IMG/VR virus record: IMGVR_UViG_3300032605_000021
Strand: one strand, 5' to 3'
Source of the DNA: a virus
DNA length: 57,631 nucleotides
Both the position numbers and the translations under genes were made by a program. This document shows positions 338 to 43,606 of this stretch, piece by piece (position 1 is the stretch's first letter; each line of letters starts with the position of its first letter). A model generated the notes under the pieces. The model saw only the letters and a list, made by a program, of their open reading frames with translations. It searched no databases and was not told where the DNA came from.

Positions 338-2617
338 CTATTCCACCACCTTATAGCCCAACGCGCGGGCATGTTTCGATGCTGCCGCTAAATCACGTTT
401 TGGATTAGCCGCCCGCCATGCCGATTTGCTCCATTCATGGGTTGCTGGAGATGGCAGCGGTTTCGGGGTTGGCAATTGACCCGCTGGGATTCTTTCCGGC
501 AATCCCGCCGGCCCAACCTTGAATCCTGCTGGGGCTGGTGGCGTCGGCACCGGGTTGGACGCCAGCGGCTGCACCCTCATTCGGCTTGTGGCCTCATTCA
601 AGGGCGGTGCGGTCGGGGGTGATGGTAGTGGCGCTCCCTGCGCCCCTGGACTGGCCTGCGCGGGCAACTGGAGCACGGCATCCGGTTCGGGCGTGATGAC
701 CGCTGGGGTGACCGGCGCTGGCGATCCTGGGCGCGCTGCGCCTTCCGGCGTGACGTTGAAGCCGGGAGGCGCCCCCGGTGGCGCTGCGGGTGGCTGTGGC
801 TGTCCTGCTGGCCCAACCTCGGCATTGCCCGGTACGTCTGCGGGGAGTTGCAACTGTGGGTTGGCTAGTTGTCGCCGAGCGGCGCTGAATTGCGGCGGCG
901 GTTCAGGCGGCGGGGTGCGGTCGGGCAACTTTGAGAAAAATCGCTGCAATCCCTCTTGCACCTGGCCGAGTGGCGTTACGCCGAGTCCCTTCTCGGCAAT
1001 GATTCTCGCTGTTCCCGAGATTGGGCCAGCGCCCATCGTTCTTGCGCCCGTCAGCGCGTCCGCGATAGTCGCCTTGACACCCTTCGGCTCCTGAATCAGC
1101 GCCTCTTTGGACGCCAATTGCGGGGCAGCATTGCCGAGCGCCTCCTGAGCCTTCATGATGCTTGACTCTGTGCGCTTGGCTGCGCTGAAATCCTGCCCGC
1201 TGGCCTTTTCTAGTTGGTCGTAATACTCACCACGGAGTTTCGATAGCGCGTCCGACATGGCCGAGTCGACGGTCCCACTCCGGCCGGCGGCAATTGCGTT
1301 CTTGCGGAACTGTGGCGCTAGTTCGCGGTTGAGGTACATCCGGAGTTCGTTGGCCCCGCCCAACGTATCAACCTTACCTAGCCGATCCTTCAGGTCGGTG
1401 ATGGCTGCCGCATCTTCCGGCGAGAATCCCTCAAGCGATTCAGGGAATGTCACTGCGGCCTGGACTGGACGGGGATCGAACGGAGCATTGGCGACGGGCT
1501 GGAGTGCAGCTTGGTGCTGATCGTCAATAATCCCCTTGGCTTTGTCGAGCAGGTTTTGAGTCGCCGCAAGCGCATCTTCCGGCGCTCCCGAGCGAATCGC
1601 CTTGACTATCTCTGGATTATCGGCGGCAACCTGCCGGAGTGGACTGCCAATGTCCTGGGCGACCTGCTTTGGGAAGTAGTCTTTCCCCATGCCGGTTCCG
1701 CGCGCCAGAACGCCGCTAAGTGACTTGTGCTGCCCCTGGGTGTAGTTCTCGCCCTCGACTGGGCGGTTGCGCCGGAACTGAGTCAGCGCCTCGTCTGCGG
1801 TATCCTGGGCGACAGCACGGACGGCATCAGGGAGCGCCTTGACACCCTCAATCACTTTCGGCGCCAACTTTCCAGACGCCATGGTTGCGGCCAGAGGAAG
1901 CAGCGCGGCGATAGCGCCTCCAATGTCGCCCGCCGCTACGTGTTCTCCGATCTGCTGTCCAGCATCGGCGGCCATAGGTCCGAGACCTGGAATAGTCGCT
2001 GCTAGTCCATGACCGAGAGCTAACTCGCGGTGCTCAACCGCTTGCGGTGAGGGATTCATTGAATACCAGGGAGTTGCAGCATCAGCTTGTTTGAATTCGC
2101 TTACCGCTTGAGAGCCCTGATCTATGGCGCCCCGTGCAATTCCCTCAAGACCCCTTTCGACAATCGCTCCTCCAGGCACTACGGCATTTGCTGCCGATTC
2201 TTGCGGATTAGTCGCGTCGGGATTGATCGACTGCGCAATACCTTTGCCAAGGTTTGTAAATCCTCGCCGCGCTGTTTCCGAGAACCCTCTCGCCGGACGT
2301 GTGGGGTCTTGCGTGAAATCTTGCTGATACGCTTCTTCTGGTTTCAGCCCACGCTGTGGGATGGGATTCGTGTCGAACTGGTAGCCGAGTTCCTTAGCCT
2401 TCGGGACGGCGCTGTATGGAATCGGTAACTTATGCCCGTTGTCGTTCCACATCGGATAAACGCCTTCGCCAGGCTTGCCTGTCAGATCGGGAGGCGCGGC
2501 GGGTTGGTTACCAAGCGGAACCTCGGTGAGCCCATCCGGAACGCCTTGCACCCCAGACGATATTGGGACTTCGGTCAGTCCTTCCGGCACTCCCTCAATT
2601 GCTGGACTGGTAGGCAT
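338..2617 (-). CDS. Large low-complexity virion-module protein (internal-virion/ejection-protein-like), Pro-rich C-terminal third
   Basis: 759-aa ORF. Its ATG shares one base with the TAA of the upstream 662-aa gene (TAATG at 2615-2619). Long P/A-rich tail. It sits after the tail genes, as podovirus internal virion proteins do. No catalytic motif recognised. Confidence 0.45.
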   Translation of the reverse strand: MPTSPAIEGVPEGLTEVPISSGVQGVPDGLTEVPLGNQPAAPPDLTGKPGEGVYPMWNDNGHKLPIPYSAVPKAKELGYQFDTNPIPQRGLKPEEAYQQDFTQDPTRPARGFSETARRGFTNLGKGIAQSINPDATNPQESAANAVVPGGAIVERGLEGIARGAIDQGSQAVSEFKQADAATPWYSMNPSPQAVEHRELALGHGLAATIPGLGPMAADAGQQIGEHVAAGDIGGAIAALLPLAATMASGKLAPKVIEGVKALPDAVRAVAQDTADEALTQFRRNRPVEGENYTQGQHKSLSGVLARGTGMGKDYFPKQVAQDIGSPLRQVAADNPEIVKAIRSGAPEDALAATQNLLDKAKGIIDDQHQAALQPVANAPFDPRPVQAAVTFPESLEGFSPEDAAAITDLKDRLGKVDTLGGANELRMYLNRELAPQFRKNAIAAGRSGTVDSAMSDALSKLRGEYYDQLEKASGQDFSAAKRTESSIMKAQEALGNAAPQLASKEALIQEPKGVKATIADALTGARTMGAGPISGTARIIAEKGLGVTPLGQVQEGLQRFFSKLPDRTPPPEPPPQFSAARRQLANPQLQLPADVPGNAEVGPAGQPQPPAAPPGAPPGFNVTPEGAARPGSPAPVTPAVITPEPDAVLQLPAQASPGAQGAPLPSPPTAPPLNEATSRMRVQPLASNPVPTPPAPAGFKVGPAGLPERIPAGQLPTPKPLPSPATHEWSKSAWRAANPKRDLAAASKHARALGYKVVE

Positions 2618-4605
2618 TATTTTTTCACCGCCTGATATTTTCCGTTGACCGCATATCCGACAACCGCGCCACTCTTATCGGTGTAGGCGTGGGTAGCGCC
2701 GGGAGGTGGGGAAGGTGCTTTCGGGGTAGATGTGGGAGTAGTTCCGCCACGCACGTTATGGCCGCCCTTCATCTGCGGCAAACCCTCAGCGAGACGATTG
2801 GCGGTCAGGCGAATCTGACCGGTCTGCTTCTTGAGGTAATCGAGGTCCGGAGTGCTGGCTCCTGGAGCCATTTCCATGAGGCGATTGACTTGAGCATCGG
2901 ACACGCCACCGCCAGCCGATTGCCTGAGAGCCTGCAAGTTCTCTTTGTACGCCTTGACGTTGGTAACATAATCGCGCTCCTCCGGTGAGAGCCCGCTCGT
3001 TGCAAAAGCACCTTGAGCCCATTGGACCGAAGTACTCTTCGGATCAGCAATGGCTGTAGCAACTGCCGGATTGTTGAGTTGTCCGCCAGCCTGCACGAGC
3101 CGTTCAGCAGTCTTTTCGATGTTATCGGTCGCGCCAAGGACGTCGTTGAATTGCGCCGTCTTGCCTTCCTGCTTGATGTAGGGGGCCGCAAGCGAAGTGC
3201 CGATAGGTTTACCTGCTGCCGAAGTGGCCCCGCCTTCGAGTTGGTTTCCTTCTAAGTCAGTTCCGAGCATCTGTCCCGATGCACGAAGGGCGTAGGAGTT
3301 TGCCTTCTTCATCTCGGCGTCTATTTGTTTCTGTTTTTGCTCGAAAGCTGGAGTTCCTGGGGTGATCTTTTCCCTTTCGATTTCGGCACGTAATTGCTGT
3401 GTTTTCTGTATTGAAGCTCGCCAATCGCTGAGAGCCTGTTTTTGCTTTGTGATAGGCGAGTCGGGATCTTCTGAGTAAGTCAACTTCCCATCTGGTCCTG
3501 TCGTAGATTTAAGGCCTAGCGCGGCAGCCCGTTCGTCAGCATTCAATCCGGCAATGTCTTTTCTTCCTTGAGTGTTAACCCCCGCCACCGCAACCGTCTT
3601 AACGGCAGATGCCGGCAAGGACGTTCCAACGAAGGGCTTTAGCGCTGCATTCTCTTCACCCATAGCGGCAGTGATTGGAATGGGCTGTTCTGATTCAGTT
3701 CTGGCTTGCTCTTCTGCTGTTTTCGTATTTGCTGCGCCCTGTGTGAGTTGCTGTTGGAGATTCGCAGTCATCCCGGCGTTACGCCTGGCTGCGTCAGAGA
3801 ACGCGCGAGTCGGTGCGCCGTATGGAGTTGCGCCTACCGCAGCCGGATCGACTGCGCCCATGAGAGCGCCAGCTATGCCGTGCTCAGCCAAACCCTCAAG
3901 GCCAGCCTTCAAGCCTCTGCCAAACCTCTGCCAGCGCGTCGGGTTGTAGGTCCCGCTGTTCGGGTCATTGGGGTCACGGAGTTGCGGTACGCCTGTCGGA
4001 TTCGCTGCGGTGCGTGGTGAGTTCGCCGCCGCCAATCGCGACTCAACGGCGTTCATATCGACCGGCGCGCTGGTATTGGAAGAATTAGGCTTCAAAGATA
4101 GTACGCCGTCTTGGACGTTGTTTGGATTGACGGGATTTTCTTGCCCGGTTGATGCTCCGTCCATCGGGAGAACATTTGACGGGACCGCCCGCGCGCCCGT
4201 CGAATCAGTTGGCGGATTGGGCGCATTGGTCGTCGGCATCTGGGCCTGCGCACCAGCCGCAAGACTCTGCCCGAATCCCTCCATTGGGCTCTTGTTATCG
4301 AGTGTCATGCCGTATGGTTTGGAGTCTTGCTCCGCGGGCTGGTTGGTTGCCGTGCCTGTCGCTGGCGCCGGCGTCGATGCGGGAGCAACCGCGGCTTGCG
4401 GCTTTCCTACCGCCGCGGCAAGAGGGCTCGGTGGAGCAACCACCGGTCGCGCGGCTGTCGGCAGGGGAAACGGTACTCCCGATTGGTGCGCCGCCAAATA
4501 CCCGGATGGGTCTCCCGACGCAAGCATCTCCTCCCAATCGACGCCGGATGACGCAATCGGGGATGCCGATGGAATTAGGCCTTGAAGTCCGTTCGTGTCC
4601 GCCAT
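2617..4605 (-). CDS. Large low-complexity virion-module protein (internal-virion-like)
   Basis: 662-aa ORF rich in A/G/P/Q/T. Translationally coupled to the next gene. No recognisable enzymatic motif. Confidence 0.45.
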   Translation of the reverse strand: MADTNGLQGLIPSASPIASSGVDWEEMLASGDPSGYLAAHQSGVPFPLPTAARPVVAPPSPLAAAVGKPQAAVAPASTPAPATGTATNQPAEQDSKPYGMTLDNKSPMEGFGQSLAAGAQAQMPTTNAPNPPTDSTGARAVPSNVLPMDGASTGQENPVNPNNVQDGVLSLKPNSSNTSAPVDMNAVESRLAAANSPRTAANPTGVPQLRDPNDPNSGTYNPTRWQRFGRGLKAGLEGLAEHGIAGALMGAVDPAAVGATPYGAPTRAFSDAARRNAGMTANLQQQLTQGAANTKTAEEQARTESEQPIPITAAMGEENAALKPFVGTSLPASAVKTVAVAGVNTQGRKDIAGLNADERAAALGLKSTTGPDGKLTYSEDPDSPITKQKQALSDWRASIQKTQQLRAEIEREKITPGTPAFEQKQKQIDAEMKKANSYALRASGQMLGTDLEGNQLEGGATSAAGKPIGTSLAAPYIKQEGKTAQFNDVLGATDNIEKTAERLVQAGGQLNNPAVATAIADPKSTSVQWAQGAFATSGLSPEERDYVTNVKAYKENLQALRQSAGGGVSDAQVNRLMEMAPGASTPDLDYLKKQTGQIRLTANRLAEGLPQMKGGHNVRGGTTPTSTPKAPSPPPGATHAYTDKSGAVVGYAVNGKYQAVKK

Positions 4606-7084: not shown

Positions 7085-10000
7085 CTACTTGCTCTCCCCG
7101 GCCAGCCGGCCTGCAAACATCGGCGAGATAAAGACGCAACTGTATTTCATCGACCACCAGGCGTCGGCGATGCAACCGTTGGTCAGCCGCAACCTCCAGC
7201 GCTCATTCAACTTGCTGGGCGTGTTCTTGCTGATTCCCTTGGTCGGATTCAATTCAAGCTGAATCGGCTTCATCTTGACCAGCCAGCTCGGCTGCGGTGT
7301 ATCGGCCTCCCAGTCGGTGATGCGGCGGGCTCCTGCGATGAATTCAACGAACAGGCTGCCGTTGCCGCGGGCATTCATATTCAAGCCCTGCAACTTGCAC
7401 AGCGTCATCATCTGCTGCGCGGCGACGGTCTCATACTGGCAATCAATTCCGGCCGTGTTGTCGTTGTAGATACCGGGAGTTAGAGCCTGGACTGTTCCGT
7501 CCGGAGCCGATGAGGCATAAAGCATCTGCGAGATGTATTGCCGGCTGATCTCCTCGGTCGTGTCTACCGGACCTTCATCTGGCGTAGGCAAGCCTGTGAC
7601 TGTCCGGTATGCCCGCATCCCGCAGTAGGCGGTGATGTTGGTCCAGACGCTGTACTTACGGCATGCCTCAATGGTGATTTCCTTGCCAGAGTAACGCGAG
7701 AACAGAAGCGGATTGTTCCACCCCTCCTCATAGTTCAGCACCAAAACAACATTGGGAACCGTGCTCGATCCAACCGGGAGGCCGATGTGGACCTCGTGAT
7801 ACTCAACATCGATCGCGCACCAGATAGTCTCCTGAGCCTGCCAGTTGATCGTGTTCCAGAAGCGATTCAGCTCCTTTGAGACCAACTCCGGCCAGGACGA
7901 CTCGTACTTGTAGATTCCGCTCGAATGGATGAAAAGCAGGAATTGACCACATACATCGACGGCGCGCGGCCCGCACGGCCCCACCTTCGTCCAGCGTTTC
8001 GTCACAGTCCATGTGGCTGGATCTGCAGTTGATGGTGACAACTCAAAGCCAGACCGCTCTCGAAGCGAGTAGGGGACGCCCTGATACTCCCTTACGCACC
8101 AGGCACGCTCACCGTCATCGGTTCCAACCTGAATGCCGGACGTGTCACCGTAGTAGCTCTCAGGGTCGGCGGCCAGCGAGACCCAGTGACCGGAGTAGAA
8201 TCCCGGCACGCCACTCTGGAATATGCGGTCAGTCGCCTCCGAGTAGTAGAGATCAACGCATTGCTGTGGCTGGATCACGCGCAGCCGGTCGGTTGTATTC
8301 GTGCCCACGGATGCGATGAGTCCGGCAAGATACTCGTCCGTGAAGTTGACGGTTGCTGTCGAAGTTCCATTCGGGAAGATAGTCGCCGTGATTTGAATTC
8401 CATCAGAGACCAGAGTGGTCGGCGAGTAGGCGTAAGGCCCTGCGCTCACTCCATCGGCAACCGCGAAGTTGCAGATTACATTCTGGATGTAAGCAGGCCC
8501 AGTCGGAAGATTGAAGACGGAAAGCTCCCACCCATTCTCGTCAACGATGTAGTTGACCGCCGACGCCTGCGTGAATCCGGAGATGGTGTCAAACATATCC
8601 TGATAGGCAATCGTCATCCAGCGGTAGCCCTGAGTTCCGTTGGGCCCACCCTGTGCCGTGTCCTGGGCGATGTTGCCGGCTGTGCCGGTCGTATTGGCCG
8701 TGGGCGGGGGCGGGCCAGATACACTGCTTGCGACGGTCACGGTCGCGCCAGTGCCGTAGGTTCCGATTAAGGCGAAGTCTCCGAATTGAGGGAATGTGCT
8801 GCCATCGAATACCGTCCCGGTCGGCACGTCGCATTCATAGAGCCGGATCCCAGTGACAGCATAGCCTTGTGGAAATTGCGTGGAAATGACGAACGCATCA
8901 TCGACCAATGTGTTAACCATCGAGTTTGCTGGGCCTGGGAGCGTCTCTCCGGCGGCGTTGACATATGTCTGGAGGATATAGACATCGCGTCCGGCAGGGA
9001 ATGTGCCGCCACCTGCGGAGCGCGCCATGACTGGCTCAACGTCGGGCGTCGGCAACTGACCGCCTGTAATGCGCGCCGTGTTGGTTGTTGGCGGATTCAC
9101 CGAGCCGCCAAGAGTGGTCACTCCGTAAAGTGTTCCAAGCGCAACCGGGGTCGCGTTGAATTTTACATAAGTTAAGAGTTGCGGGGCCGGAGATCCGTGT
9201 GTTACCTCCGCCACATAGACGTTCGCTCCAGTGGGGACGTAGTTAGCGGGCAAACCCTGCATCCATCCAGCTAGAGACGCCAACGCGGGGATTTTCACGT
9301 TGACCGTCGTACCGCCTGCAATTGGATTGATGAAAACCGGGATAGATGGCAGTGTCTCGCCGATGCTGTTGACCATCGTGATGGCAATATAGACATCGGC
9401 TCCGGTTCCCCATGTCCCGCCGCCGGCCAGAGATAGAACTGGGGATGCCGGAATAGGAATACGATTAGCCATTACCGGCGTCTGCTCTTTCCAGATAACG
9501 CCACCATCGTTGTATATCTGTCCCTCGACGGCGGTCCAAACTGGCTGCACATTGCCGCAAGTTCCAGCCTGCGTGCAGATGTAGAGATGGCCATTCCCGA
9601 CGGCAACCGTAACGCCGTACCGAATATCAGACAGCGTGCAGCACTCGCCGACAAGAACCTGGGCGCCGGCGTACCAGCCAAAGCCGACCGGTTTCATGCC
9701 GTAGGGGTAGAGGTTTTGGGTGAAGAGATCGTATGCGGCAGGGAATTCTGTGGGAGTGAGAAGGTTTGAGAATGCCATCCATGCCCGGTTGTAGGCCTGG
9801 GTTCCGATCATGTAGGATTGGGCGGGCAGGTTCACCAGCGGGGAGCTGATGGGTGTTGTGCGGCCCGTCCCGGTGGGGTTCTCTATCTGGAGCGCGCCGG
9901 AATAGTCGTAGAGCAGGATGGTTTGAAAGTAGTCCTGAGTCGCACTCTCCGGCGTGTAGGCGCACGGCAAGAGACCTGCGATGGGACTTTGGTTGATTCC

Positions 10001-34229: not shown

Positions 34230-35048
34230 ATGGACATTAAGAATCTGTACGATGTAGTCATTTTCACGTCTGCCGCGCTGACCATCAAGGACGCGGTAAT
34301 TGATGCAATTGCCAAACGTGCCAACCTGCGCGATGCCAACCTGCGCGGTGCCGACCTGCGCGGTGCCAACCTGAGCGGTGCCGACCTGCGCGAGGCCAAC
34401 CTGAGCGGTGCCTACCTGATCGGTGCCAACCTGCGCGATGCCGACCTGAGCGGTGCCAACCTGCGCGATGCCAACCTGCGCGGTGCCGACCTGCGCGGTG
34501 CCAACCTGAGCGGTGCCGACCTGCGCGATGCCAACCTGCGCGGTGCCGACCTGCGCGGTGCCAACCTGCGCGATGCCGACCTGAGCGGTGCCTACCTGAT
34601 CGGTGCCAACCTGCGCGATGCCAACCTGCGCGGTGCCAACCTGCGCGATGCCAACCTGCGCGGTGCCGACCTGCGCGGTGCCAACCTGAGCGGTGCCGAC
34701 CTGCGCGAGGCCAACCTGAGCGGTGCCTACCTGATCGGTGCCAACCTGAGCGGTGCCAACCTGCGCGATGCCGACCTGATCGGTAAAAAAATTGAGGCAT
34801 TGCACGTCTTTACTGGACTCTATCGCTATACCGTGTGGGTTGTTTTGTTTCAGGATGGCTCACGTTGGGTGCGTATGGGATGCCTCTGGAATTCGCTTGA
34901 CGATTGGGGAAAAATTGGTATTCGCAACAGTAACCTGAAAGAATTTCCAGACGACGGATCAGACGAAAGCGAGGAGCGCGTCTCGGCGTTTCAGTTTGCC
35001 AAAGCGGCGGCGCTGCGATTGAAGGCGGACGGAAAGGATGCCAAATGA
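34230..35048 (+). CDS. Pentapeptide-repeat protein (31 consecutive A-[NDY]-L-[RSI]-[GDE] units) with a ~90-aa non-repeat C-terminal domain
   Basis: Translation ANLRDANLRGADLRGANLSG... matches the A(D/N)LXX pentapeptide-repeat consensus. AGGAGAAAGTA precedes the ATG. Confidence 0.85.
   Translation: MDIKNLYDVVIFTSAALTIKDAVIDAIAKRANLRDANLRGADLRGANLSGADLREANLSGAYLIGANLRDADLSGANLRDANLRGADLRGANLSGADLRDANLRGADLRGANLRDADLSGAYLIGANLRDANLRGANLRDANLRGADLRGANLSGADLREANLSGAYLIGANLSGANLRDADLIGKKIEALHVFTGLYRYTVWVVLFQDGSRWVRMGCLWNSLDDWGKIGIRNSNLKEFPDDGSDESEERVSAFQFAKAAALRLKADGKDAK
34320..34784 (+). repeat. Tandem 15-nt repeat x31 (coding, in frame)
   Basis: Unit gcc-(a/g/t)ac-ctg-(cgc/agc/atc)-(ggt/gat/gag). 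Codon choice is nearly invariant, and units 2-7 recur exactly as units 23-28. Confidence 0.9.
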
Positions 35049-38030: not shown

Positions 38031-38207
38031 ATGGGAGTTTTAGGAAAAAGGGAAGCGAATCGCAAGCCGGCAATCCATCGGACGGTGGTAATCGGGATTC
38101 GCCTCACGCCGAAAGACGCGAACAAGCTGCGCGCTGAAGCGGAGGCGATGGGCCGGACACTGGCCGGGCATGTGGTGTATTTGCTCAGGAAAGGTGGGGC
38201 ACTGTAA
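38031..38207 (+). CDS. Ribbon-helix-helix-like small protein (58 aa)
   Basis: VVIGIRLTPKDANKLRAEAEAMGRTLAGHVVYLL reads as strand-helix-helix. TAATG overlap with the exonuclease gene. Below the track cut-off. Confidence 0.5.
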   Translation: MGVLGKREANRKPAIHRTVVIGIRLTPKDANKLRAEAEAMGRTLAGHVVYLLRKGGAL

Positions 38208-39193
38208 TGGCGGTATACGAAGCGAAAGAGAGTTACGCGACATCACGCGCTGGCGGGATCGGCGGAACGGACGCCAGTGCTATCTTGGGATTGAGCCCAT
38301 GGAAGCGCCCCATCGACATTTACGCCGGCAAGGTCAACCCTGGCGCCCAGCCCGAGTTAGACAAAGAGTGCCTCTACTGGGGAAGCGCTCTTGAGCCAAT
38401 CGTGCGCGGTCGTTACGCTGAGCGGTTTGGTGTAGCTGTCACCGCACCGGCAGACCTTGCGCCCATCTTCCCCAAGTCCCGGCCCTGGCGCGATTCAACG
38501 CTGATCGAGGGGTCGGAGCCGTGGATGCTTGGCGCGCCGGATGGGTGGATGCCATCGGTCAACACTGGGCTCGAAATCAAATGTGCCTCACGCAAAAGCG
38601 ACGAGTGGGGGCCGGAAGGATCGGACGAAGTTCCGGCGCATTACTTGGTTCAGGCCGCCTGGTATACCGCCGTCTGCAATGCGCGCGGCTGGAACTTTGG
38701 CGTCCTGTTCTCCGGTAACACCTTGGCGCAGTACCGCATCGAGCGCGATCTAGAGCTTGAGAAGAACATGATCGAGGCTTGCCGGTCGTTTTGGTTTGAT
38801 AACGTACTCAAGCAGGTCGAGCCGGACATCGACGAGAGCGAGAGCTACGGCAAGTATCTCGCGCGCAAGTTCAGCCTCAACACCGGCAAGGTACTCAGCC
38901 CGACTCCCGATATACTCCACTGGGCCAGCGAGATGAAGGCCGCCGACGACGAGGAGAAGGAAGCGGCGGAGCGGAAGCAGTTGGCGAACAACCATCTCCG
39001 GGCACTGCTTGGCGACGCTCAAAAATGCGTGACGCCTCTCGGTTCGATAGGCTGGGTGCGGCCGGAGACCAAAGACGCGACCAATTGGAGCGAGGTTGGC
39101 AAGAAGGTTGGCCCACTACATCCCGATGTGGTCAAGGAATTCACGGCGCCGAAAGAGATCACGGCTTACTTGCGGGCGTGGTGGAAGAAGTAA
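38207..39193 (+). CDS. YqaJ-type (lambda-Exo-like, PD-(D/E)xK) recombination exonuclease
   Basis: GGIGGTDASAILGLSPWKRPIDIYAGK...WGSALEPIVR...GAPDGW...GLEIKCAS matches the YqaJ viral recombinase pattern. Lies next to recT. Confidence 0.75.
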   Translation: MAVYEAKESYATSRAGGIGGTDASAILGLSPWKRPIDIYAGKVNPGAQPELDKECLYWGSALEPIVRGRYAERFGVAVTAPADLAPIFPKSRPWRDSTLIEGSEPWMLGAPDGWMPSVNTGLEIKCASRKSDEWGPEGSDEVPAHYLVQAAWYTAVCNARGWNFGVLFSGNTLAQYRIERDLELEKNMIEACRSFWFDNVLKQVEPDIDESESYGKYLARKFSLNTGKVLSPTPDILHWASEMKAADDEEKEAAERKQLANNHLRALLGDAQKCVTPLGSIGWVRPETKDATNWSEVGKKVGPLHPDVVKEFTAPKEITAYLRAWWKK

Positions 39194-39311: not shown

Positions 39312-40136
39312 ATGGCAGACCAGCAGCAGCAGTTAGCAACCATCCCCCCGCGTCAAGGTATCATCGCCAAGTTTGGCGAGCGGTACGACCTGGAACCCAA
39401 CAAAGTCCTAGCTATCGTAGCTCAGACTGTTTTCAAGGGCAGCGACAAAGAACCTCCCTTGTCGAACGAGGAAGTTGCGGCGGCCCTGATCGTCTGCAAT
39501 GCCTACAACCTCAATCCATTCACCAAGGAAATCTACGCCTTTCGCTCCAAGGGCAAGCTCCTGATCGTCGTCGGCGTGGACGGATGGGCGGCAATCGTCA
39601 ACCGGCATCAGGAACTGAACGGCATCGAGTTCGAGGAACACTTCGACGACAAGGGCAACATTCGCGCCGTCACATGCAAGATCCACCGCAAGGACTGTGC
39701 GCTCCCGGTTGTCGTCACTGAGTACACCCACGAGTGCCGGCGTGAGTCGATCCCCTGGCAGACGATGCCAATCCGCATGACGCGCAACCGGGCATTCGTG
39801 CAGTGCGCACGTGTGGCATTCTCGGTCTCTGGCATCATCGACAATGACGAGGCGCAGACCATCGAGGGAAGCCCTGAGTTTGTTTCGAGCCAAACCAAGG
39901 CGATCATCGACCAGTCGATCAGCAAGACCGAGGCGGTCAAGGCTGTGATCCAAAAGCGGGCGCAGTCGGCGGGCAAGAGGCAGCAGGAGGCGCCGCAGGT
40001 TGAGCCACAGCCCGAGGCGCAGCCCGCGCAGGAAGCGCAGCAGGCCGAACCGGCGCAGGAGCAGAAGCCCGCGCAGGAAACCCAACAAGCTCAGCCGGAG
40101 TACCCCTACGCAGGCGAGGATAAGGGGCTCTGGTAA
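39312..40136 (+). CDS. recT: RecT-family single-strand annealing protein
   Basis: LIVCNAYNLNPFTKEIYAF...VGVDGWAAIVNRH...PWQTMPIRMTRNRAFVQCARVAF is the RecT family core. Q/A/E/P-rich tail. Confidence 0.8.
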   Translation: MADQQQQLATIPPRQGIIAKFGERYDLEPNKVLAIVAQTVFKGSDKEPPLSNEEVAAALIVCNAYNLNPFTKEIYAFRSKGKLLIVVGVDGWAAIVNRHQELNGIEFEEHFDDKGNIRAVTCKIHRKDCALPVVVTEYTHECRRESIPWQTMPIRMTRNRAFVQCARVAFSVSGIIDNDEAQTIEGSPEFVSSQTKAIIDQSISKTEAVKAVIQKRAQSAGKRQQEAPQVEPQPEAQPAQEAQQAEPAQEQKPAQETQQAQPEYPYAGEDKGLW

Positions 40137-40230
40137 ACAAGTTTCCCGCCGTCGCGCCCTGGTATTGTGCTCTGCGATGCACGTAAACCTGAAGAGGCGG
40201 CGGGAATTCAAACGAAAGGAAAGGTACGGC

Positions 40231-42120
40231 ATGAAATTCAAGTCTCTACACCTCTACAACTGGCTCTCCCACAAAGACAGCATGATGCCGCTGGATACGC
40301 TCTCCTGCTTCCGTGGCGAAAACGGTGCCGGGAAAAGCAGCGTCGAGCAGGCCATCGAGATGCTCCTCACTGGCCGCAGCGCTTCAACCGATGATAAAGG
40401 CACCGGCTCACGCGACCTGATCCGCCGCGGCACCGAGAAGTCAGCCATTACCGCTGAGATCGAAGACGGCGGCAGACTGATAAAAATGCGTTGCAGTGTC
40501 ACCGAGAAGTCGGGCCGCACCGTCACCATCAAAGATCCCGCCGACGAATCGTGGACCGGCAGCGATTACCTGGCCGGGCTGGCGATGAAGCGGGAAGTGC
40601 TTGACTGTCTCTGCAATGGACGGTACGCCCTCGACATGGACGATGCGCGGCTGAAGAAGTTCCTCGCCGGCATCATCCTGCCCACGTCGGTAGTCTGGGA
40701 CGATTGGGTGGAAGGAGCGGTCAACCAGTGCGGGCTGCAGGTGGACTGGAGCCTCAAGGCATTCGACGTGATCGTTCTCGCCTACGATCAGGCCTACAAC
40801 GAGCGCAAGGCCATCAACCGCACGCTCAAGGACTGGCGGGAGCCGGATCCGGTCGCCGTGCAGGAGATGGACCCGCAGTCGATACGTTCCAGGCTGAATG
40901 AGCGGCAGGACCAGCGCACCAAGTTGGCGTTGCAGCGTCAGAAGGTGCTCGACGGCTGGCAGCGGGCCAATGATGCGCGCGGCAAGCTGGCCGGTAAGGT
41001 GCAGGGCCTGGAGTTCAAGATCGCCACCGAGCAGGAGCGGCGCGCGGTGGTCGCCAAGGAACTACTCTCAGCCAAGGCGCTCAAGGAGGCCGAGAAGCTG
41101 GCGGCTGGCGCGGAGAAGGGCAAGAAGCTCGAGGCTGAGATGCAGCAGAACGCCGGCGCATTGGCTGAGGTCCGCCGAACGCTGGCTAAATTGAATGATC
41201 TTGGCGAGGCGGGGGTCTGCCCAACTTGCAGCCAAGCTATCACGCCAGAAGTATTCGCTGTTATCGAAGTTCCGATAGCGGAAAAGTGTGAATTTCTTAC
41301 AGACCAAGCGCTCGACCTGCAGGATGCCCGCAAGCTCTTGGGCGACTACGAGGGTGCCGAGCGGGTACTGGCTGCCCACGCGCAGGCCGTCAAGAACCTG
41401 GCGCTAGTAGACGAGCACATCGCCGGCGTCGAGAAGGACATCGCCGAACTGAAAGCGGAGATTGCCGAGAACCAGGAGACGGCCCAGCCCGACACAACCG
41501 ACGTGGATCTCCAGATTGCCGACCTTGACAGCCGCATCGAGAAGGGGAATGCCGCGCTGACGGCAGCCATTCAGGCCGACGACGCCCGCAAAGCCTACGC
41601 GCAGGCATTGGACGCCAAGGCGCGACTCGACGCCAAGCAGGGACTACTGGAGCGGCTGGTTGAGTATTTCGGCGCCAAGGGCATCCAGGCCAAACTCCTC
41701 GACGAGCACGTAGGCGGGTTTGAGCGCAGCATGAACAAGGTGCTGGCAACCTGGGGCTACGCCTGTCACCTGCAGTTCGATCCGTTCGCCTTCAGCCTGT
41801 CATTCGCCGGCAAGGATGCGGTCTACAACCTGCGGACGATCAGCAAGAGCCAGAAGCATGCTTTCTCGATTGCGTTTCAGGTGGCTCTAGCCAAGGTGAG
41901 CGGGTTTGGCTTTGTGGTTATCGACGAGGCTGATATGTTCCTCGACGCCAACCGGGGCCAGATGTACCGGGCGCTGATGGGGGCCGGGCTGGACCAGGTG
42001 ATCGTGCTGCAATCTGACCTGCGCCGGGAGATTCCGAAGGCTGCAAACAGTGTGTTCTATCTCTTGACGCTCGACCGCAGCGGCGACGTGCCGGTGACGA
42101 AGGTGGAGCGGCTGACGTAA
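40231..42120 (+). CDS. SbcC/Rad50-like SMC-type ATPase
   Basis: ATG at 40231 follows AAAGGAAAGG. MKFKSLHLYNW...FRGENGAGKSS is a Walker A motif. Long coiled coil with a CPTCSQ hook-like CxxC. SKSQKHAFSIAF is signature-like and FGFVVIDEADMFLD is a Walker B/D-loop. Confidence 0.7.
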   Translation: MKFKSLHLYNWLSHKDSMMPLDTLSCFRGENGAGKSSVEQAIEMLLTGRSASTDDKGTGSRDLIRRGTEKSAITAEIEDGGRLIKMRCSVTEKSGRTVTIKDPADESWTGSDYLAGLAMKREVLDCLCNGRYALDMDDARLKKFLAGIILPTSVVWDDWVEGAVNQCGLQVDWSLKAFDVIVLAYDQAYNERKAINRTLKDWREPDPVAVQEMDPQSIRSRLNERQDQRTKLALQRQKVLDGWQRANDARGKLAGKVQGLEFKIATEQERRAVVAKELLSAKALKEAEKLAAGAEKGKKLEAEMQQNAGALAEVRRTLAKLNDLGEAGVCPTCSQAITPEVFAVIEVPIAEKCEFLTDQALDLQDARKLLGDYEGAERVLAAHAQAVKNLALVDEHIAGVEKDIAELKAEIAENQETAQPDTTDVDLQIADLDSRIEKGNAALTAAIQADDARKAYAQALDAKARLDAKQGLLERLVEYFGAKGIQAKLLDEHVGGFERSMNKVLATWGYACHLQFDPFAFSLSFAGKDAVYNLRTISKSQKHAFSIAFQVALAKVSGFGFVVIDEADMFLDANRGQMYRALMGAGLDQVIVLQSDLRREIPKAANSVFYLLTLDRSGDVPVTKVERLT

Positions 42121-42144
42121 ACCATTTAACAGAAAGGAAAGGCA

Positions 42145-42435
42145 ATGCCGAAACTGAAGTACGTTATCGTGCGAACTTACTCCGCTGGAGTCTTCGCGGG
42201 CAATCTCAAATCGCGTGACGGCAAAGAAGTTACGCTAACCAATGCGCGGCGGCTGTGGTACTGGTCGGGCGCAGCTTCCCTGTCACAGCTTGCGGTGGCG
42301 GGAACGTCGAAACCAAAGGAATGTAAATTTCCTGTGGCTGTCCCGTCAGTCACCCTCACCGAAGCAGTTGAAATTCTCGAAGTAACTCCCGAAGCGGAGA
42401 CCTCAATCAAAGCCGTTCCTGAATGGAAAGCGTAA
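42145..42435 (+). CDS. Hypothetical conserved-looking protein
   Basis: 96-aa ORF with GAAAGGAAAGG upstream. Globular-looking sequence (YVIVRTYSAGVFAGNL...ARRLWYWSGAASLSQLA). Confidence 0.6.
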   Translation: MPKLKYVIVRTYSAGVFAGNLKSRDGKEVTLTNARRLWYWSGAASLSQLAVAGTSKPKECKFPVAVPSVTLTEAVEILEVTPEAETSIKAVPEWKA

Positions 42436-42746
42436 AACCTTCCGGGTACGGGTACGGGTACGGGGACGGGTACGGGTACGGGTCCGGGTACGGGTCCGGG
42501 TCCGGGTACGGGTCCGGGTCCGGGTACGGGGACGGGTACGGGTCCGGGTCCGGGTCCGGGTCCGGGTACGGGTACGGGTCCGGGTACGGGTCCGGGTACG
42601 GGTACGGGGACGGGTACGGGGACGGGTCCGGGGACGGGTCCGGGTACGGGTCCGGGTCCGGGTACGGGTCCGGGTCCGGGTACGGGGACGGGTACGGGTC
42701 CGGGTACGGGGACGGGTCCGGGGACGGGTCCGGGTCCGGGCATTAA
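42423..42746 (+). CDS. Gly-(Tyr/Ser/Asp) dipeptide-repeat ORF (coding status uncertain)
   Basis: 107-aa ORF, MESVKPS(GY/GS/GD)x~50. An in-frame stop lies immediately upstream of the ATG, there is no SD, and it overlaps the upstream gene by 13 nt. Confidence 0.4.
   Translation: MESVKPSGYGYGYGDGYGYGSGYGSGSGYGSGSGYGDGYGSGSGSGSGYGYGSGYGSGYGYGDGYGDGSGDGSGYGSGSGYGSGSGYGDGYGSGYGDGSGDGSGSGH
42444..42740 (+). repeat. Hexanucleotide tandem repeat (GGG-TAC/TCC/GAC) x~50; G-quadruplex-type tract
   Basis: 50 G3-4 runs separated by 2-3 nt, read directly from 42444 to 42740. Confidence 0.9.
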
Positions 42747-42841
42747 AGGCTTCCGGCCATAACCGGGAGGGCGCGGGGCTACCATGGAGGACTAACCGGC
42801 CGGCATCGGCAGCCCGCGCCTCACAATTCAGAGGTTATATC

Positions 42842-43144
42842 ATGCCTTGCGAATGGTACAGGATGGCAGACGGGACCGTGGTACACGTCAATCGTGGCCG
42901 AGGCGGACGTAAGCAGGAGTGTAAGTTCTGTCACCAGAAGTATTCCGAAGGCAAAATGTGCGACTTTCCGGTTGGCAACGGAAAGACCTGCGATGCGGAA
43001 ATGTGCAACGACTGCGCGCGAACACTTGGAAGGCAGCATACTGACGCAGGTTTCGGAATGACGAGACTTGACGATACCATCGACGTTTGCCCTATCCATC
43101 GCAATCAGGCAGTCGTCGTTGACGGGAAGATCGAGGGAGAGTGA
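42842..43144 (+). CDS. Cys-rich (zinc-binding-like) hypothetical protein
   Basis: 100 aa containing CKFCH...CDFP...CDAEMCNDC...CPIH. Confidence 0.55.
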
Positions 43145-43145
43145 C

Positions 43146-43349
43146 ATGAAAGGTACGGTAGTTTGGTTCAATAACGGCAAGGGATTCGGCTTCATCAAAA
43201 GCGAAGACGGGCACGACATTTTCGTGCACTACTCCGCTCTCCAGATGGACGGCTACAAGCAACTCAAGCAGGACCAGCGTGTCGAGTTCGATATTGTCCA
43301 GGGCGCAAAGGGGCAGCAAGCTGACAACGTACGAGTGATTGGAGAATAG
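43146..43349 (+). CDS. csp: Cold-shock protein (CspA family)
   Basis: [32 protein letters not shown]... carries RNP1 (KGFGFI) and RNP2 (IFVHY). 67 aa from the ATG at 43146. Confidence 0.9.
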
Positions 43350-43351
43350 TC

Positions 43352-43606
43352 ATGGCACCTATTACCCAGAAGCAGGCGCGCGAGTATAAGGCGCGCGTTG
43401 CGAAGTTGGAGAAGTTGATTGATCGTGTTCGCCGTCACTGGCTAGACGAATGGCCGTGCAAGGCGACTGTCATTGGGCGCGTAGACGTTACACCGGTTGC
43501 TTGCGCTCAGATCGAGACTGCCAAGCGGCTGCGCCACGCTGTCACCGTTACCGTCGATGATAAGTCGATTGTGTTCTGGGCTGACCCGCTAAGGGATGAC
43601 GAATGA
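43352..43606 (+). CDS. Hypothetical protein
   Basis: 84-aa ORF with a 4-nt overlap with the HNH gene. Confidence 0.5.
   Translation: MAPITQKQAREYKARVAKLEKLIDRVRRHWLDEWPCKATVIGRVDVTPVACAQIETAKRLRHAVTVTVDDKSIVFWADPLRDDE

Follow-up and report, generated by a model that had tools for sequence, protein, structure and literature searches.

A hexanucleotide array in a phage genome is very probably a protein-coding gene that forms a conserved cassette with DUF6948

The phage genome studied here, a 57.6-kb window that comprises the whole stretch of DNA analysed, carries an uninterrupted run of GGG-NNN hexanucleotides. Is this run a G-quadruplex (G4)-forming DNA or RNA element, or is it a gene? An earlier note on this DNA had described an array of 50 such units starting at 42444. 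Tandem Repeats Finder (TRF) detected a single array at 42443-42740 (period 6, 49.7 copies, score 393), and the direct reading of hexamers gave 50 units (20 GGGTAC, 21 GGGTCC, 8 GGGGAC, and one terminal GGGCAT), confirming the description. The note had also proposed an ORF with a single codon for each residue. Translating the ORF, we find exactly this product: MESVKPS, followed by 49 G-[Y/S/D] dipeptides and a final GH. Within the array, Gly is always GGG (50/50), and the X position is always Tyr, Ser, or Asp (49/49), written as TAC, TCC, and GAC, respectively. In the rest of the genome, GGG constitutes only 19% of the Gly codons and TCC only 15% of the Ser codons, so the codon choice of the array does not reflect codon bias. 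A tRNA scan of the window found none; hence, there is no phage tRNA-Gly(CCC) for the GGG codons.

The repeat protein (107 aa, 9.8 kDa) contains 50 Gly, 23 Ser, 20 Tyr, and 8 Asp residues; its repeat lacks Ala, Gln, and Asn and is nearly devoid of Lys and Arg. Its net charge is -8 and its pI is about 4. AlphaFold2 gave a model without secondary structure (pLDDT 34.5), from which nothing was learnt beyond disorder. The repeat protein is thus predicted to be disordered, and among the roles that had been listed earlier for this region, a disordered Gly/Tyr-rich protein is the one favoured. The features of the locus are collected in Table 1.

Table 1. Features of the locus (positions of the window).
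Feature	Position	Strand	Basis
DUF6948 gene, 96 aa, first cistron	42145-42435	+	Pfam PF22253, E 3e-33
13-nt overlap, likely translational-coupling site	42423-42435	+	Sequence; -13 geometry in most loci
Gly-[Tyr/Ser/Asp] repeat protein gene (very probable), second cistron	42423-42746	+	ORF, composition, AlphaFold2
Hexanucleotide coding microsatellite (by comparison of arrays), 50 units, 50 G3 runs on the sense strand	42444-42743	+	TRF, unit counts
Spacer, 95 nt	42747-42841	+	Fold; conservation in closest relatives

All six reading frames are open through the array. Hence, the length of the ORF by itself does not prove coding. The start region raises a similar doubt. The ATG at 42423 comes directly after an in-frame TGA (42420-42422), and it lies 13 nt within the upstream gene, whose stop ends at 42435 (the sequence at 42421-42435 is GAATGGAAAGCGTAA). 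A Shine-Dalgarno (SD) core is absent upstream of this ATG in this lineage. The earlier note had reported the preceding stop, the missing SD, and the 13-nt overlap, all of which hold, and had called the coding status doubtful. Similarity searches named no family for the repeat ORF. Pfam gave no family above threshold, the sole match being a compositional one to TrAA12 (20.8 bits against a cut-off of 30.9), PHROGs gave no family, and the PDB sequence search returned spurious low-complexity matches only. The protein has 258 database relatives, none of them named. Comparing 10 kb around the locus with 50,697 phage records by megablast, we obtained no match.

The genomic context of the relatives was more informative. 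On viral contigs, a (G-[YSD..])n ORF lies directly downstream of DUF6948 in about 69 of 75 non-redundant loci, and on bacterial/MAG contigs in about 65 of 69 informative loci. When arrays were found by the DNA motif alone, a DUF6948 gene (30-98% identity) was directly upstream in about two thirds of them. The DUF6948 family comprises about 1,950 clusters at 50% identity and is found across many bacterial phyla, in contigs from phages and MAGs. With the repeat gene present at nearly every sampled locus, this pair is among the more widespread phage gene pairs without a known function or literature. The genes outside the cassette vary (deoxyribosyltransferase-like, Lin1244/DnaA_N, T5orf172, HTH_36, glycosyltransferase, HNH, and RecE/Bet), and we dropped the idea of a conserved wider neighbourhood because the flanking genes differ between loci.

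The cassette is also present in the cultured phages Ralstonia NK-7 (XCO36016/XCO36015), Pectobacterium Ymer (WCD42788/WCD42787), and Iodobacter phiPLPE. These phages have the same two genes in the same order and on the same strand, encode a (G-[S/Y/D])n protein, and use a single Gly codon throughout each array. Their arrays differ in being of the GGC type without G3 runs, and their DUF6948 proteins are only 44-50% identical to that of this phage. The repeat ORF of phiPLPE is unannotated; it sits between gp84 and gp83, is followed by an intrinsic terminator, and shares with MW202898 the 13-nt start/stop overlap seen here. In contrast, the repeat ORF of NK-7 starts 5 nt after the DUF6948 stop. 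It is annotated as 'fibroin heavy chain-like protein'. The earlier statement that no such phage element had been described therefore stands only in part: our literature search on DUF6948, DUF7666, and Gly-X/Gly-Tyr repeats in phages found no relevant paper, but the gene already exists in cultured phage genomes, in one of them with an annotation.

We then consider the junction of the two genes, where the 13-nt overlap recurs in most loci. An ATG, GTG, or TTG occupies position -13 in 84 of 87 junctions. In this phage, the ATG consists of the last base of a DUF6948 Glu codon and the first two bases of a conserved Trp codon (GAATGG). The base preceding TGG in the 87 loci is mostly A (73 loci), otherwise G (10), C (3), or T (1). 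The DUF6948 codon preceding the conserved Trp is GTA in 31 of 39 cases for Val, ATA in 20 of 21 for Ile, and GAA in 14 of 14 for Glu. By these codon counts, the -13 start codon is under selection and is created by normally rare synonymous DUF6948 codons (GTA, ATA, GAA). The encoded residues show constraint as well: family-wide, 92% of the X residues are Y/S/D, and, compared with what mutation can readily reach, Pro, Thr, Ala, and stop codons are under-represented and Phe and Asn over-represented.

Start codon, frame, and residue pattern are thus conserved over hundreds of diverged loci, and the frame is fused to globular domains in some relatives, which argues against the doubt about coding. 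On this comparative evidence, we are highly confident that the ORF is a true gene that encodes a protein and forms the second cistron of a widely conserved tailed-phage cassette. Other ORFs were dropped, namely a reverse-strand ORF at 42177-42785 (Pro-Gly-Pro-Val repeats), which runs antisense through the conserved DUF6948 gene, and the other two sense frames (Gly-Thr/Pro and Val/Gly-Arg), which are not conserved in GGC-type arrays. DUF6948 ends in a conserved ...[V/I/E]-W-x-x-stop pattern; translation would start at the ATG inside this pattern, 13 nt ahead of the stop, and the conserved geometry suggests that the repeat ORF is probably translated by termination-coupled re-initiation. As for ribosome binding, SD cores precede the junction in about a third of the relatives (30/84, versus 3/84 controls) and in none of this lineage.

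How does a gene come to use one codon for each residue? Across the relatives, the Gly codon is homogeneous within an array and differs between arrays, GGC being the most frequent (about 70%), followed by GGT, GGG, and GGA. Array length is also variable. Close relatives with near-identical flanks carry 50, 41, and about 46 units, and a single phage population contains 50- and 24-unit arrays that differ by a 26-unit in-frame deletion. The unit is a multiple of three (6 nt), and the observed length variants stay in frame. We rejected a phase-variable (contingency) repeat because, despite the copy-number polymorphism, a 6-nt unit cannot switch the frame. Compared across relatives, the array is shown to be a coding hexanucleotide microsatellite, in which slippage or unequal recombination adds, removes, and homogenises units. 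This homogenisation leads to one codon per residue in each array, the Gly codon that became fixed differing between phages. The earlier suggestion that codon monotony reflects slippage-type expansion is supported by the length variants, the in-frame deletion, and the homogeneity within arrays. Arrays strongly prefer GGC and TCY even in AT-rich genomes, a preference that the protein model alone does not explain.

What might the two proteins do together? The DUF6948 protein is mildly basic (net charge +4, pI 9.4). One AlphaFold2 model of it had a pLDDT of 88.6 and lacked an N-terminal helix. Performing Foldseek, we find that almost all of the PDB matches listed are Sm/LSm proteins (probability 1.00, E ~4e-3), with TM scores of up to 0.72 when normalised to the target and 0.45-0.6 when normalised to the query. 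The PDB sequence search gave one match (E 0.007). By its model, DUF6948 is predicted to be an Sm-like beta-barrel. It presumably forms rings that bind nucleic acids and belongs to the early gene block for DNA metabolism.

The best explanation overall, towards which we lean with modest confidence, is a translated two-cistron cassette in which an Sm-like protein is supplied in trans with a low-complexity tail. The specific role of the repeat protein as the disordered, acidic, Tyr-rich tail of DUF6948 is a more tentative part of this explanation, and we regard it as plausible but doubtful. The charges of the pair are complementary (+4 for DUF6948 and -8 for the repeat protein). The tail would be made at a coupled stoichiometry with DUF6948, and the acidic repeat would bind its basic partner. 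It may then gate the nucleic-acid surfaces of DUF6948, acting as an acidic nucleic-acid mimic, or it may link DUF6948 particles into higher-order assemblies via multivalent Tyr/Gly contacts. A bolder version, which we consider a long shot, is that the pair acts as a phage RNP organiser. Here, the Sm-like ring would sit on phage RNA or ssDNA intermediates, and a FUS-like partner supplied in trans would bring about a condensate or gel inside the infected cell. In GGG-type phages, the mRNA of the gene itself would carry as many as 12 tandem RNA quadruplexes and serve as a built-in ligand or feedback element. If so, a bacterial virus would have its own equivalent of LSm/P-body or FUS-type assemblies.

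The strongest competitor to a tail supplied in trans is that the repeat protein is translated but autonomous. It could self-assemble into a silk-like or condensate-forming material, or it could act as a decoy or sponge, with a host protease, chaperone, kinase, or defence sensor as examples of its target; DUF6948 would then merely be co-transcribed. The portability of the repeat argues for this idea. In relatives, the repeat runs in frame into DUF7666-like domains at either end (hhalign 96%, E 1.5e-9), for which the PDB sequence search gave no match. It also occurs alongside other domains, as tandem copies, and at loci without a detected DUF6948, so it may be a general-purpose module rather than a dedicated DUF6948 tail. 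In addition, all 20 Tyr residues lie within G-Y-G triplets, a type of motif known from FUS-like low-complexity domains, and the alternating Gly-X pattern is silk-like, in line with the fibroin annotation in one GenBank record. Against autonomy, no other context comes near the DUF6948 linkage and the -13 overlap in conservation, and natural DUF6948-repeat fusions occur. The repeat is fused to DUF6948 itself in one case (P0323), and related covalent Gly-rich tails follow DUF6948 in four others (P0280, P0256, P0310, and P0327). Such covalent fusions number only a handful in 150 cluster representatives; the two are separate ORFs here and in most loci. Two further candidate fusions were rejected, one with a truncated DUF6948 that may be chimeric (P0010) and one that is a frameshifted read of an array (P0219). 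Taken together, we consider autonomy unlikely and prefer the reading with DUF6948 as the partner.

A second competitor retains the translated gene and adds a regulatory use of the DNA or RNA. In GGG-type lineages, tandem G4s in the mRNA or in the non-template DNA could throttle translation of the repeat or downstream genes, form a transcription or replication barrier, or create a recombination hot-spot beside Exo/RecT/SbcC. In silico, the sense strand is indeed strongly G4-prone. The array has 50 G3 tracts with 3-nt loops and a mean G4Hunter score of 1.33, the score that the earlier note had asked for, and all 55 canonical G3+N1-7 motif starts on the + strand of the window fall inside it. In ViennaRNA, the minimum free energy of the sense RNA drops from -151 kcal/mol to -194 kcal/mol when the G4 model is switched on. 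This gain of about 43 kcal/mol comes with 8 quadruplexes, and neither the antisense RNA nor a GGC-recoded version shows any gain. GGG-type arrays also recur. The GGG 27-mer is present in 57 viral contigs (the GGC 27-mer in at least 120), and the GGG type appears in many DUF6948 lineages, with at least 23 switches on the tree. Finally, a gene for a cold-shock-domain (Csp) protein, a nucleic-acid melting protein, is located 400 bp downstream in this phage; in the closest relatives, L001 and L002, it immediately follows the array.

Other data speak against such a dual use. GGG-type arrays are a minority, accounting for 7-17% of Gly codons in protein-ascertained loci and for 3 of 69 genome loci. 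The array type tracks the local GC content (median 0.59 for GGG versus 0.50 for GGC), as expected from mutation bias. The Csp linkage is limited to the closest relatives, and one contig (L108) carries both a GGG-type and a GGC-type cassette. At the orthologous position, the G tracts are not conserved, most arrays being of the GGC/GGT type without G3 runs. From this comparison, the protein pattern is the conserved feature and the G-runs are not. This phage fixed GGG, from which the 50 G-runs and the G4 propensity follow; judged across the arrays, the G4 potential is a side effect of the Gly codon used by this lineage. The array thus resembles G3N3 tandem G4 repeats in its 50 G3 tracts on one strand, its 3-nt loops, and a predicted G4 fold that beats hairpins in RNA, and differs in that its G tracts are second-order to the Gly codon and absent from most orthologous arrays. 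We therefore find a dual use decidedly unlikely, and a conserved function as a G4, origin, pac, roadblock, or recombination hot-spot, as suggested earlier, does not agree with the GGC/GGT arrays of the relatives.

The translated cassette remains our preferred reading when a purely non-coding G4 element (an origin, pac, roadblock, or regulatory DNA/RNA) is considered. In that case, the ORF would be a chance product of a repeat that contains no stop codon in whichever frame it is read. The six open frames, the lack of an SD in this lineage, and the high G4 propensity agree with it. The conservation of frame, start codon, and residue pattern while the G-runs vary, together with the fusion of the frame to folded domains in relatives, makes it very improbable. 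No Rfam family matched anywhere in the window at gathering thresholds, and the promoter/terminator scan of 41900-43400 gave nothing relevant. An origin or pac was dropped since the cumulative GC skew does not turn at this position and the DNA motif is not conserved. What had been viewed as a 406-bp non-coding element (42436-42841) is reduced to the spacer proper of Table 1. The spacer is conserved in L001 and L002, contains two predicted hairpins (~42750-42769 and 42770-42820), and holds the GAGG ribosome-binding site of the gene at 42842-43144. Its fold (-38.8 kcal/mol, z only -1.66, no T-run) is not that of a canonical terminator.

Still less probable is recoding, in which the repeat would be a C-terminal extension of DUF6948 made by a programmed -1 frameshift or by readthrough. 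The Gly-Tyr/Ser/Asp frame does overlap DUF6948 in the -1 frame, rare homologues are true fusions, and Sm proteins with covalent Gly-rich tails are known. However, there is no X XXY YYZ slippery site, the bases between start and stop vary, an in-frame stop precedes the ATG, and selection acts on the initiation codon at -13. The readthrough frame would encode Gly-Thr/Pro here and Ala-Thr/Pro in GGC-type arrays, and hence it is not conserved. A short-read metagenomic assembly artefact is hardly credible: 6 contigs end inside the array, one (L002/L127) has frame jumps within it, and the in-frame 24-unit array of L227 could be an assembler collapse, but an identical 303-nt array, every unit matching, was recovered in contigs of three other samples (L222, L223, and L228), independent assemblies call the 107-aa gene at the array, and homologous arrays exist in cultured phage genomes.

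These results bear on annotation, evolution, and G4 scanning. A perfect hexanucleotide microsatellite can be a conserved coding gene, which gene callers miss (as in phiPLPE) and assemblers break. The cassette offers a natural case of concerted evolution in a coding repeat, in which the codon is homogenised within genomes and turns over between them, while the dipeptide pattern and the overlapping start codon stay under selection. Scans of viral genomes for G4s call for caution, as dense motifs can be a by-product of codon fixation. The GGG and GGC arrays also provide a natural contrast for the effect of tandem RNA G4s on bacterial translation, and the cassette is accessible in the cultured phages NK-7, Ymer and its relatives, and phiPLPE.

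Several known proteins combine parts of this design. The silk fibroin heavy chain has (Gly-Ala/Ser/Tyr)n crystalline repeats. The phage repeat likewise places Gly strictly at every second position, in turn with small or aromatic residues, and is encoded by a highly repetitive, recombination-prone gene. It differs in lacking Ala, which dominates the GAGAGS/GAGAGY blocks of fibroin, in its many Asp residues, and in its length of about 100 rather than thousands of residues; the fibroin terminal domains are missing, and there is no homology. The low-complexity domains of the FUS family carry [G/S]Y[G/S] triplets. Here, the likeness lies in the dense Tyr flanked by Gly/Ser (20 G-Y-G in 107 aa), the predicted disorder, and the lack of a hydrophobic core, whereas FUS-like domains are uncharged and rich in Gln/Asn/Ser and the phage repeat has no Gln/Asn, 8 Asp, a net charge of -8, a perfect two-residue period, and 50% Gly. 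Among the eukaryotic Sm/LSm proteins, SmD1, SmD3, and LSm4 bear (Gly-Arg) dipeptide tails, and yeast Lsm4 has a prion-like tail. They likewise join an Sm fold to a Gly-X or low-complexity tail, there for partner binding or granule assembly. Their tails are covalent and basic (Arg) or Q/N-rich, unlike the phage repeat, which is acidic, aromatic, and encoded by its own cistron.

A precedent for the proposed pairing is Hfq of Acinetobacter baumannii, whose Sm core carries a long disordered tail of GGFGGQ repeats with an acidic tip; RNA regulation and autoregulation require both the tail and the tip (PMC11617691). The phage repeat differs from it in being a separate, presumably coupled polypeptide with a strict dipeptide rather than a hexapeptide unit, and DUF6948 has no detectable sequence relationship to Hfq. 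The two systems are alike in pairing an Sm-type fold, predicted in the case of DUF6948, with a long disordered Gly/aromatic-rich repeat that bears acidic residues, and in Hfq the number of repeats matters for function (PMC11617691).

The array consists of 50 hexamers by direct reading (20 GGGTAC, 21 GGGTCC, 8 GGGGAC and a terminal GGGCAT), and Tandem Repeats Finder reports one array at 42443-42740, with a period of 6 and 49.7 copies. The repeat ORF encodes MESVKPS, then 49 Gly-[Tyr/Ser/Asp] dipeptides, then Gly-His. An in-frame TGA lies immediately 5′ of its ATG, which falls 13 nt within the upstream gene, DUF6948 (Pfam PF22253), and no Shine-Dalgarno (SD) sequence for this ATG was found in the window. 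An earlier note had described these 50 GGG units, ATG, stop, 13-nt overlap and missing SD exactly as the sequence has them. As GGG accounts for only 19% of Gly codons and TCC for only 15% of Ser codons in the window genome, codon bias is not the cause of the monotony of the array. All six frames of the array are open, and so the ORF by itself is no evidence of coding.

The array sits in an early, rightward gene block. Megablast against 50,697 phage records gave no close relative, and neither an Rfam family nor a tRNA was detected in the window. In the mechanical ORF list, the SbcC/SMC-like gene (40000-42120) appears as a 706-aa TTG-start ORF that is over-extended into RecT; independent gene calls start it at about 40177 or 40231 (647 or 629 aa). 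The Cys-rich ORF is missing in the two closest relatives, where the Csp gene directly follows the conserved spacer. A second tandem array, made of 30.7 copies of a 15-bp unit (84% matches), codes for a pentapeptide-repeat protein (E 2e-62 to Pfam PF00805), and thus two genes of this phage are DNA-level tandem arrays.

Features of the window around the two tandem arrays
Feature	Coordinates	Strand	Remark
Pentapeptide-repeat ORF	34230-35048	+
15-bp tandem array	34318-34778		within the pentapeptide-repeat ORF
YqaJ/RecE-like exonuclease	38207-39193		rightward block
RecT	39312-40136		rightward block
SMC/SbcC-like ATPase	about 40231-42120		rightward block
DUF6948	42145-42435	+
Repeat ORF	42423-42746		107 aa
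Hexanucleotide array	42444-42743		GGG-NNN
Cys-rich 100-aa ORF	42842-43144		after repeat ORF; weak PHROG 13747/10082 matches
Cold-shock-domain protein, then HNH endonuclease			downstream of Cys-rich ORF

The window's exact DUF6948 protein is present on 21 contigs, six of which terminate within the array. Three contigs from other samples (L222, L223 and L228) carry the same array unit for unit, which leaves an assembly artefact with practically no probability as its source. Another contig of the same phage (L227, JGI 3300032753) has 24 units after position 944. The break falls between a pair of 60-nt blocks, each YSSYSSYDYS, as expected for a deletion between internal duplicates; the short array stems either from a genuine deletion by unequal recombination or from collapse of the repeat by the assembler. 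The array is hard for short-read assemblers, yet its sequence is reproducible. Many DUF6948 contigs (tables L001-L080 and P0121-P0240) are very short or run out 30-500 bp past the DUF6948 stop. Metagenome assemblies break systematically at the repeat, and the cassette of DUF6948 and repeat ORF is therefore probably under-counted. In a 98%-identical relative (L002/L127, IMGVR_UViG_3300048503_000027), offsets of 1-2 nt change the frame of the array (~4292-4599) twice, from Gly-Pro/Thr to Gly-Tyr/Ser/Asp to Gly-Thr/Pro, reflecting either misassembly or disruption of the gene.

Scanning viral contigs with the DUF6948 protein, we obtained 231 relatives and fetched 80; these gave about 75 non-redundant loci, and in about 69 of them a (Gly-X)n ORF follows DUF6948 immediately. 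The repeat ORF likewise accompanies DUF6948 at about 65 of 69 informative loci in contigs of bacteria and MAGs that span many phyla. When a 27-mer taken from the array was the query, 57 contigs matched, about two thirds with DUF6948 immediately 5′ on the same strand, at 30-98% identity. The cassette also occurs in cultured phages: Ralstonia phage NK-7, where the repeat CDS is annotated as 'fibroin heavy chain-like protein', Pectobacterium phage Ymer and its relatives, and Iodobacter phage phiPLPE (EU876853). In phiPLPE, a 78-codon Gly-Asp/Ser/Tyr ORF (1174-1410) lies between gp84 (DUF6948) and gp83 (HNH), unannotated in the GenBank and RefSeq records, with the same 13-nt ATG overlap and a clean intrinsic terminator directly 3′. 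DUF6948 comprises 1,948 clusters at 50% identity. Database matches name the repeat-protein homologues only 'hypothetical', and we found no paper mentioning DUF6948 or DUF7666. The window locus is one member of a very widespread, unstudied phage gene pair, which merits experimental follow-up in the cultured phages carrying it. Two viral contigs (L105 and L101) hold several Gly-Tyr/Ser/Asp repeat ORFs in tandem, with no DUF6948 detected near them; the three in L105 have similar leaders and identical tails (...SYPGQTS).

Four independent lines, namely start codon, codon replacement, residue constraint and fusions, make it very probable that the repeat ORF is protein-coding in the Gly-Tyr/Ser/Asp frame, as part of a conserved cassette. 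The DUF6948 C-terminus reads ...[V/I/E]-W-x-x-stop. Across 87 junctions, the TGG is preceded by A 73 times, by G 10 times, by C 3 times and by T once, and 84 have ATG, GTG or TTG at -13, that is, 13 nt before the end of the DUF6948 stop codon. The codon before Trp is GTA for 31 of 39 Val, ATA for 20 of 21 Ile and GAA for all 14 Glu. These biases reflect selection, at DUF6948 synonymous sites, for the start codon of the following gene. SD cores precede the repeat ORF in 30/84 cases, against 3/84 in a control window, and are absent in the window's own lineage. Production of the repeat from DUF6948 by frameshifting or readthrough is extremely unlikely, because a slippery site is lacking, the bases of the overlap differ between loci, the ATG has a stop directly before it, and the frame entered by readthrough shows no conservation.

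Essentially one Gly codon is used per array, and it differs among phages: mostly GGC, else GGT or GGG, rarely GGA. Arrays at protein-ascertained loci are 67-76% GGC and 7-17% GGG, and the GGC version of the 27-mer occurs in at least 120 viral contigs, the GGG version in 57. The X residues are 39% Ser, 32% Tyr and 21% Asp family-wide, a 92% share that is partly circular, as the locus filter demanded at least 70% Y/S/D/F/N. Among the rarer X residues, Phe and Asn are over-represented, while Pro, Thr, Ala and stops are depleted though equally reachable by one mutation. In many relatives, the frame continues into or out of folded domains. Ten proteins or loci (L086, L096, L097, L107, L110, L114, L124, L128, P0041 and P0016) add a C-terminal domain of about 110 residues, for which hhalign (96%, E 1.5e-9) shows homology to the DUF7666-type domain that other repeat proteins have at the N-terminus. 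The repeat is covalently attached to DUF6948 in P0323, one of few such proteins, and related Gly-rich tails occur on P0280 (Gly-Met/Leu), P0256, P0310 and P0327. P0280 (164 aa) carries a hydrophobic (Gly-Met/Leu)n repeat rather than Gly-Tyr/Ser/Asp; in some lineages, Gly-X periodicity may outweigh X chemistry. The doubt about coding raised in the earlier note is not borne out, since frame, start codon and residue pattern are conserved while the codon is replaced. Its non-coding element is likewise very improbable, given the conserved dipeptide pattern, -13 start and in-frame fusions.

Scoring with G4Hunter, as the note had suggested, we find the array strongly prone to G-quadruplexes (G4) in silico: every one of the 55 canonical motif starts that the window has on its + strand falls within it, and its mean score is 1.33. 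A G4-aware energy model lowers the sense RNA from -151 to -194 kcal/mol with eight quadruplexes, and predicts none in the antisense strand or in a GGC-recoded array. This potential is lineage-specific. The dipeptide pattern persists through full codon replacement and the G-runs are lost where the Gly codon differs, so that the G4-centred readings find no support; an additional G4 role in GGG-type phages is improbable.

As a coding microsatellite, the array DNA undergoes concerted evolution. Between the window and its closest relatives (DUF6948 98% identical), the flanks, with the 95-nt spacer, are nearly the same, but the arrays have 50, 41 and about 46 units in differing Y/S/D order. This varying unit number, together with codon homogeneity within arrays, bears out the earlier idea of slippage. 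Single-base unit variants arise, then spread or vanish via slippage and unequal exchange. The dominant Gly codon switches at least 50 times, and between GGG and non-GGG at least 23 times, when mapped on a neighbour-joining tree built from 164 distinct DUF6948 proteins, a short, noisy tree that makes these counts rough. Three loci (L042, L047 and L152) have mixed-codon arrays. One contig (L108, IMGVR_UViG_3300006217_000439) has two cassettes on the - strand (about 2475-3577 and about 9260-9544), one array being GGG-type and running on into an extra ~150-aa C-terminal domain, the other GGC-type; codon type is thus not fixed by the genome as a whole. Median GC of the loci is 0.59 for GGG-type, 0.50 for GGC-type and 0.43 for GGT-type. 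GGC is the preferred array codon even when genome GC is 28-40% and the gene next to the array favours GGA. At loci with GC below 0.42 (e.g. L178, L148 and L174), array Gly is 67% GGC, and the adjacent DUF6948 is 14% GGC and 45% GGA. In every GC class, nearly all Ser codons are TCC or TCT (TCY), a single step away from the TAY of Tyr. The GGC and TCC/TCT preference would act at the level of nucleotides or translation.

The conserved cassette has two translationally overlapped cistrons, the second giving an acidic, Tyr-rich Gly-X repeat, predicted to be disordered, from a fast-evolving microsatellite. The DUF6948 model is confident (pLDDT 88.6), and its listed solved-structure matches are almost all Sm/LSm (probability 1.00, E about 4e-3; TM 0.45-0.6 on query, up to 0.72 on target); in viruses it matches further members of DUF6948 and a small number of 'Sm-like domain' proteins. 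DUF6948 is mildly basic (+4). The repeat protein is modelled without secondary structure (pLDDT 34.5), with a net charge of -8, a pI of about 4 and every Tyr in a G-Y-G triplet. We tentatively propose, at somewhat less than even odds, that the repeat protein serves DUF6948 as a tail in trans. Probably translated by re-initiation coupled to DUF6948 termination, it would gate the putative nucleic-acid-binding surfaces of DUF6948 or bridge particles into higher-order assemblies. Invariant pairing, coupled stoichiometry, rare covalent fusions, complementary charge and the Acinetobacter Hfq precedent point to this arrangement. The repeat is also a portable module found with DUF7666-type domains, which would suit an autonomous self-assembling or decoy protein, an alternative that we consider unlikely. 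For the tail in trans, the precedent is Acinetobacter Hfq, whose Sm core continues into a long tail of GGFGGQ repeats that has an acidic tip and is needed for regulation (PMC11617691). The nearest characterised analogue is a protein of the Sm type whose low-complexity tail is rich in Gly and aromatic residues; the phage pair would be such a protein split into two cistrons, with a pure dipeptide repeat.
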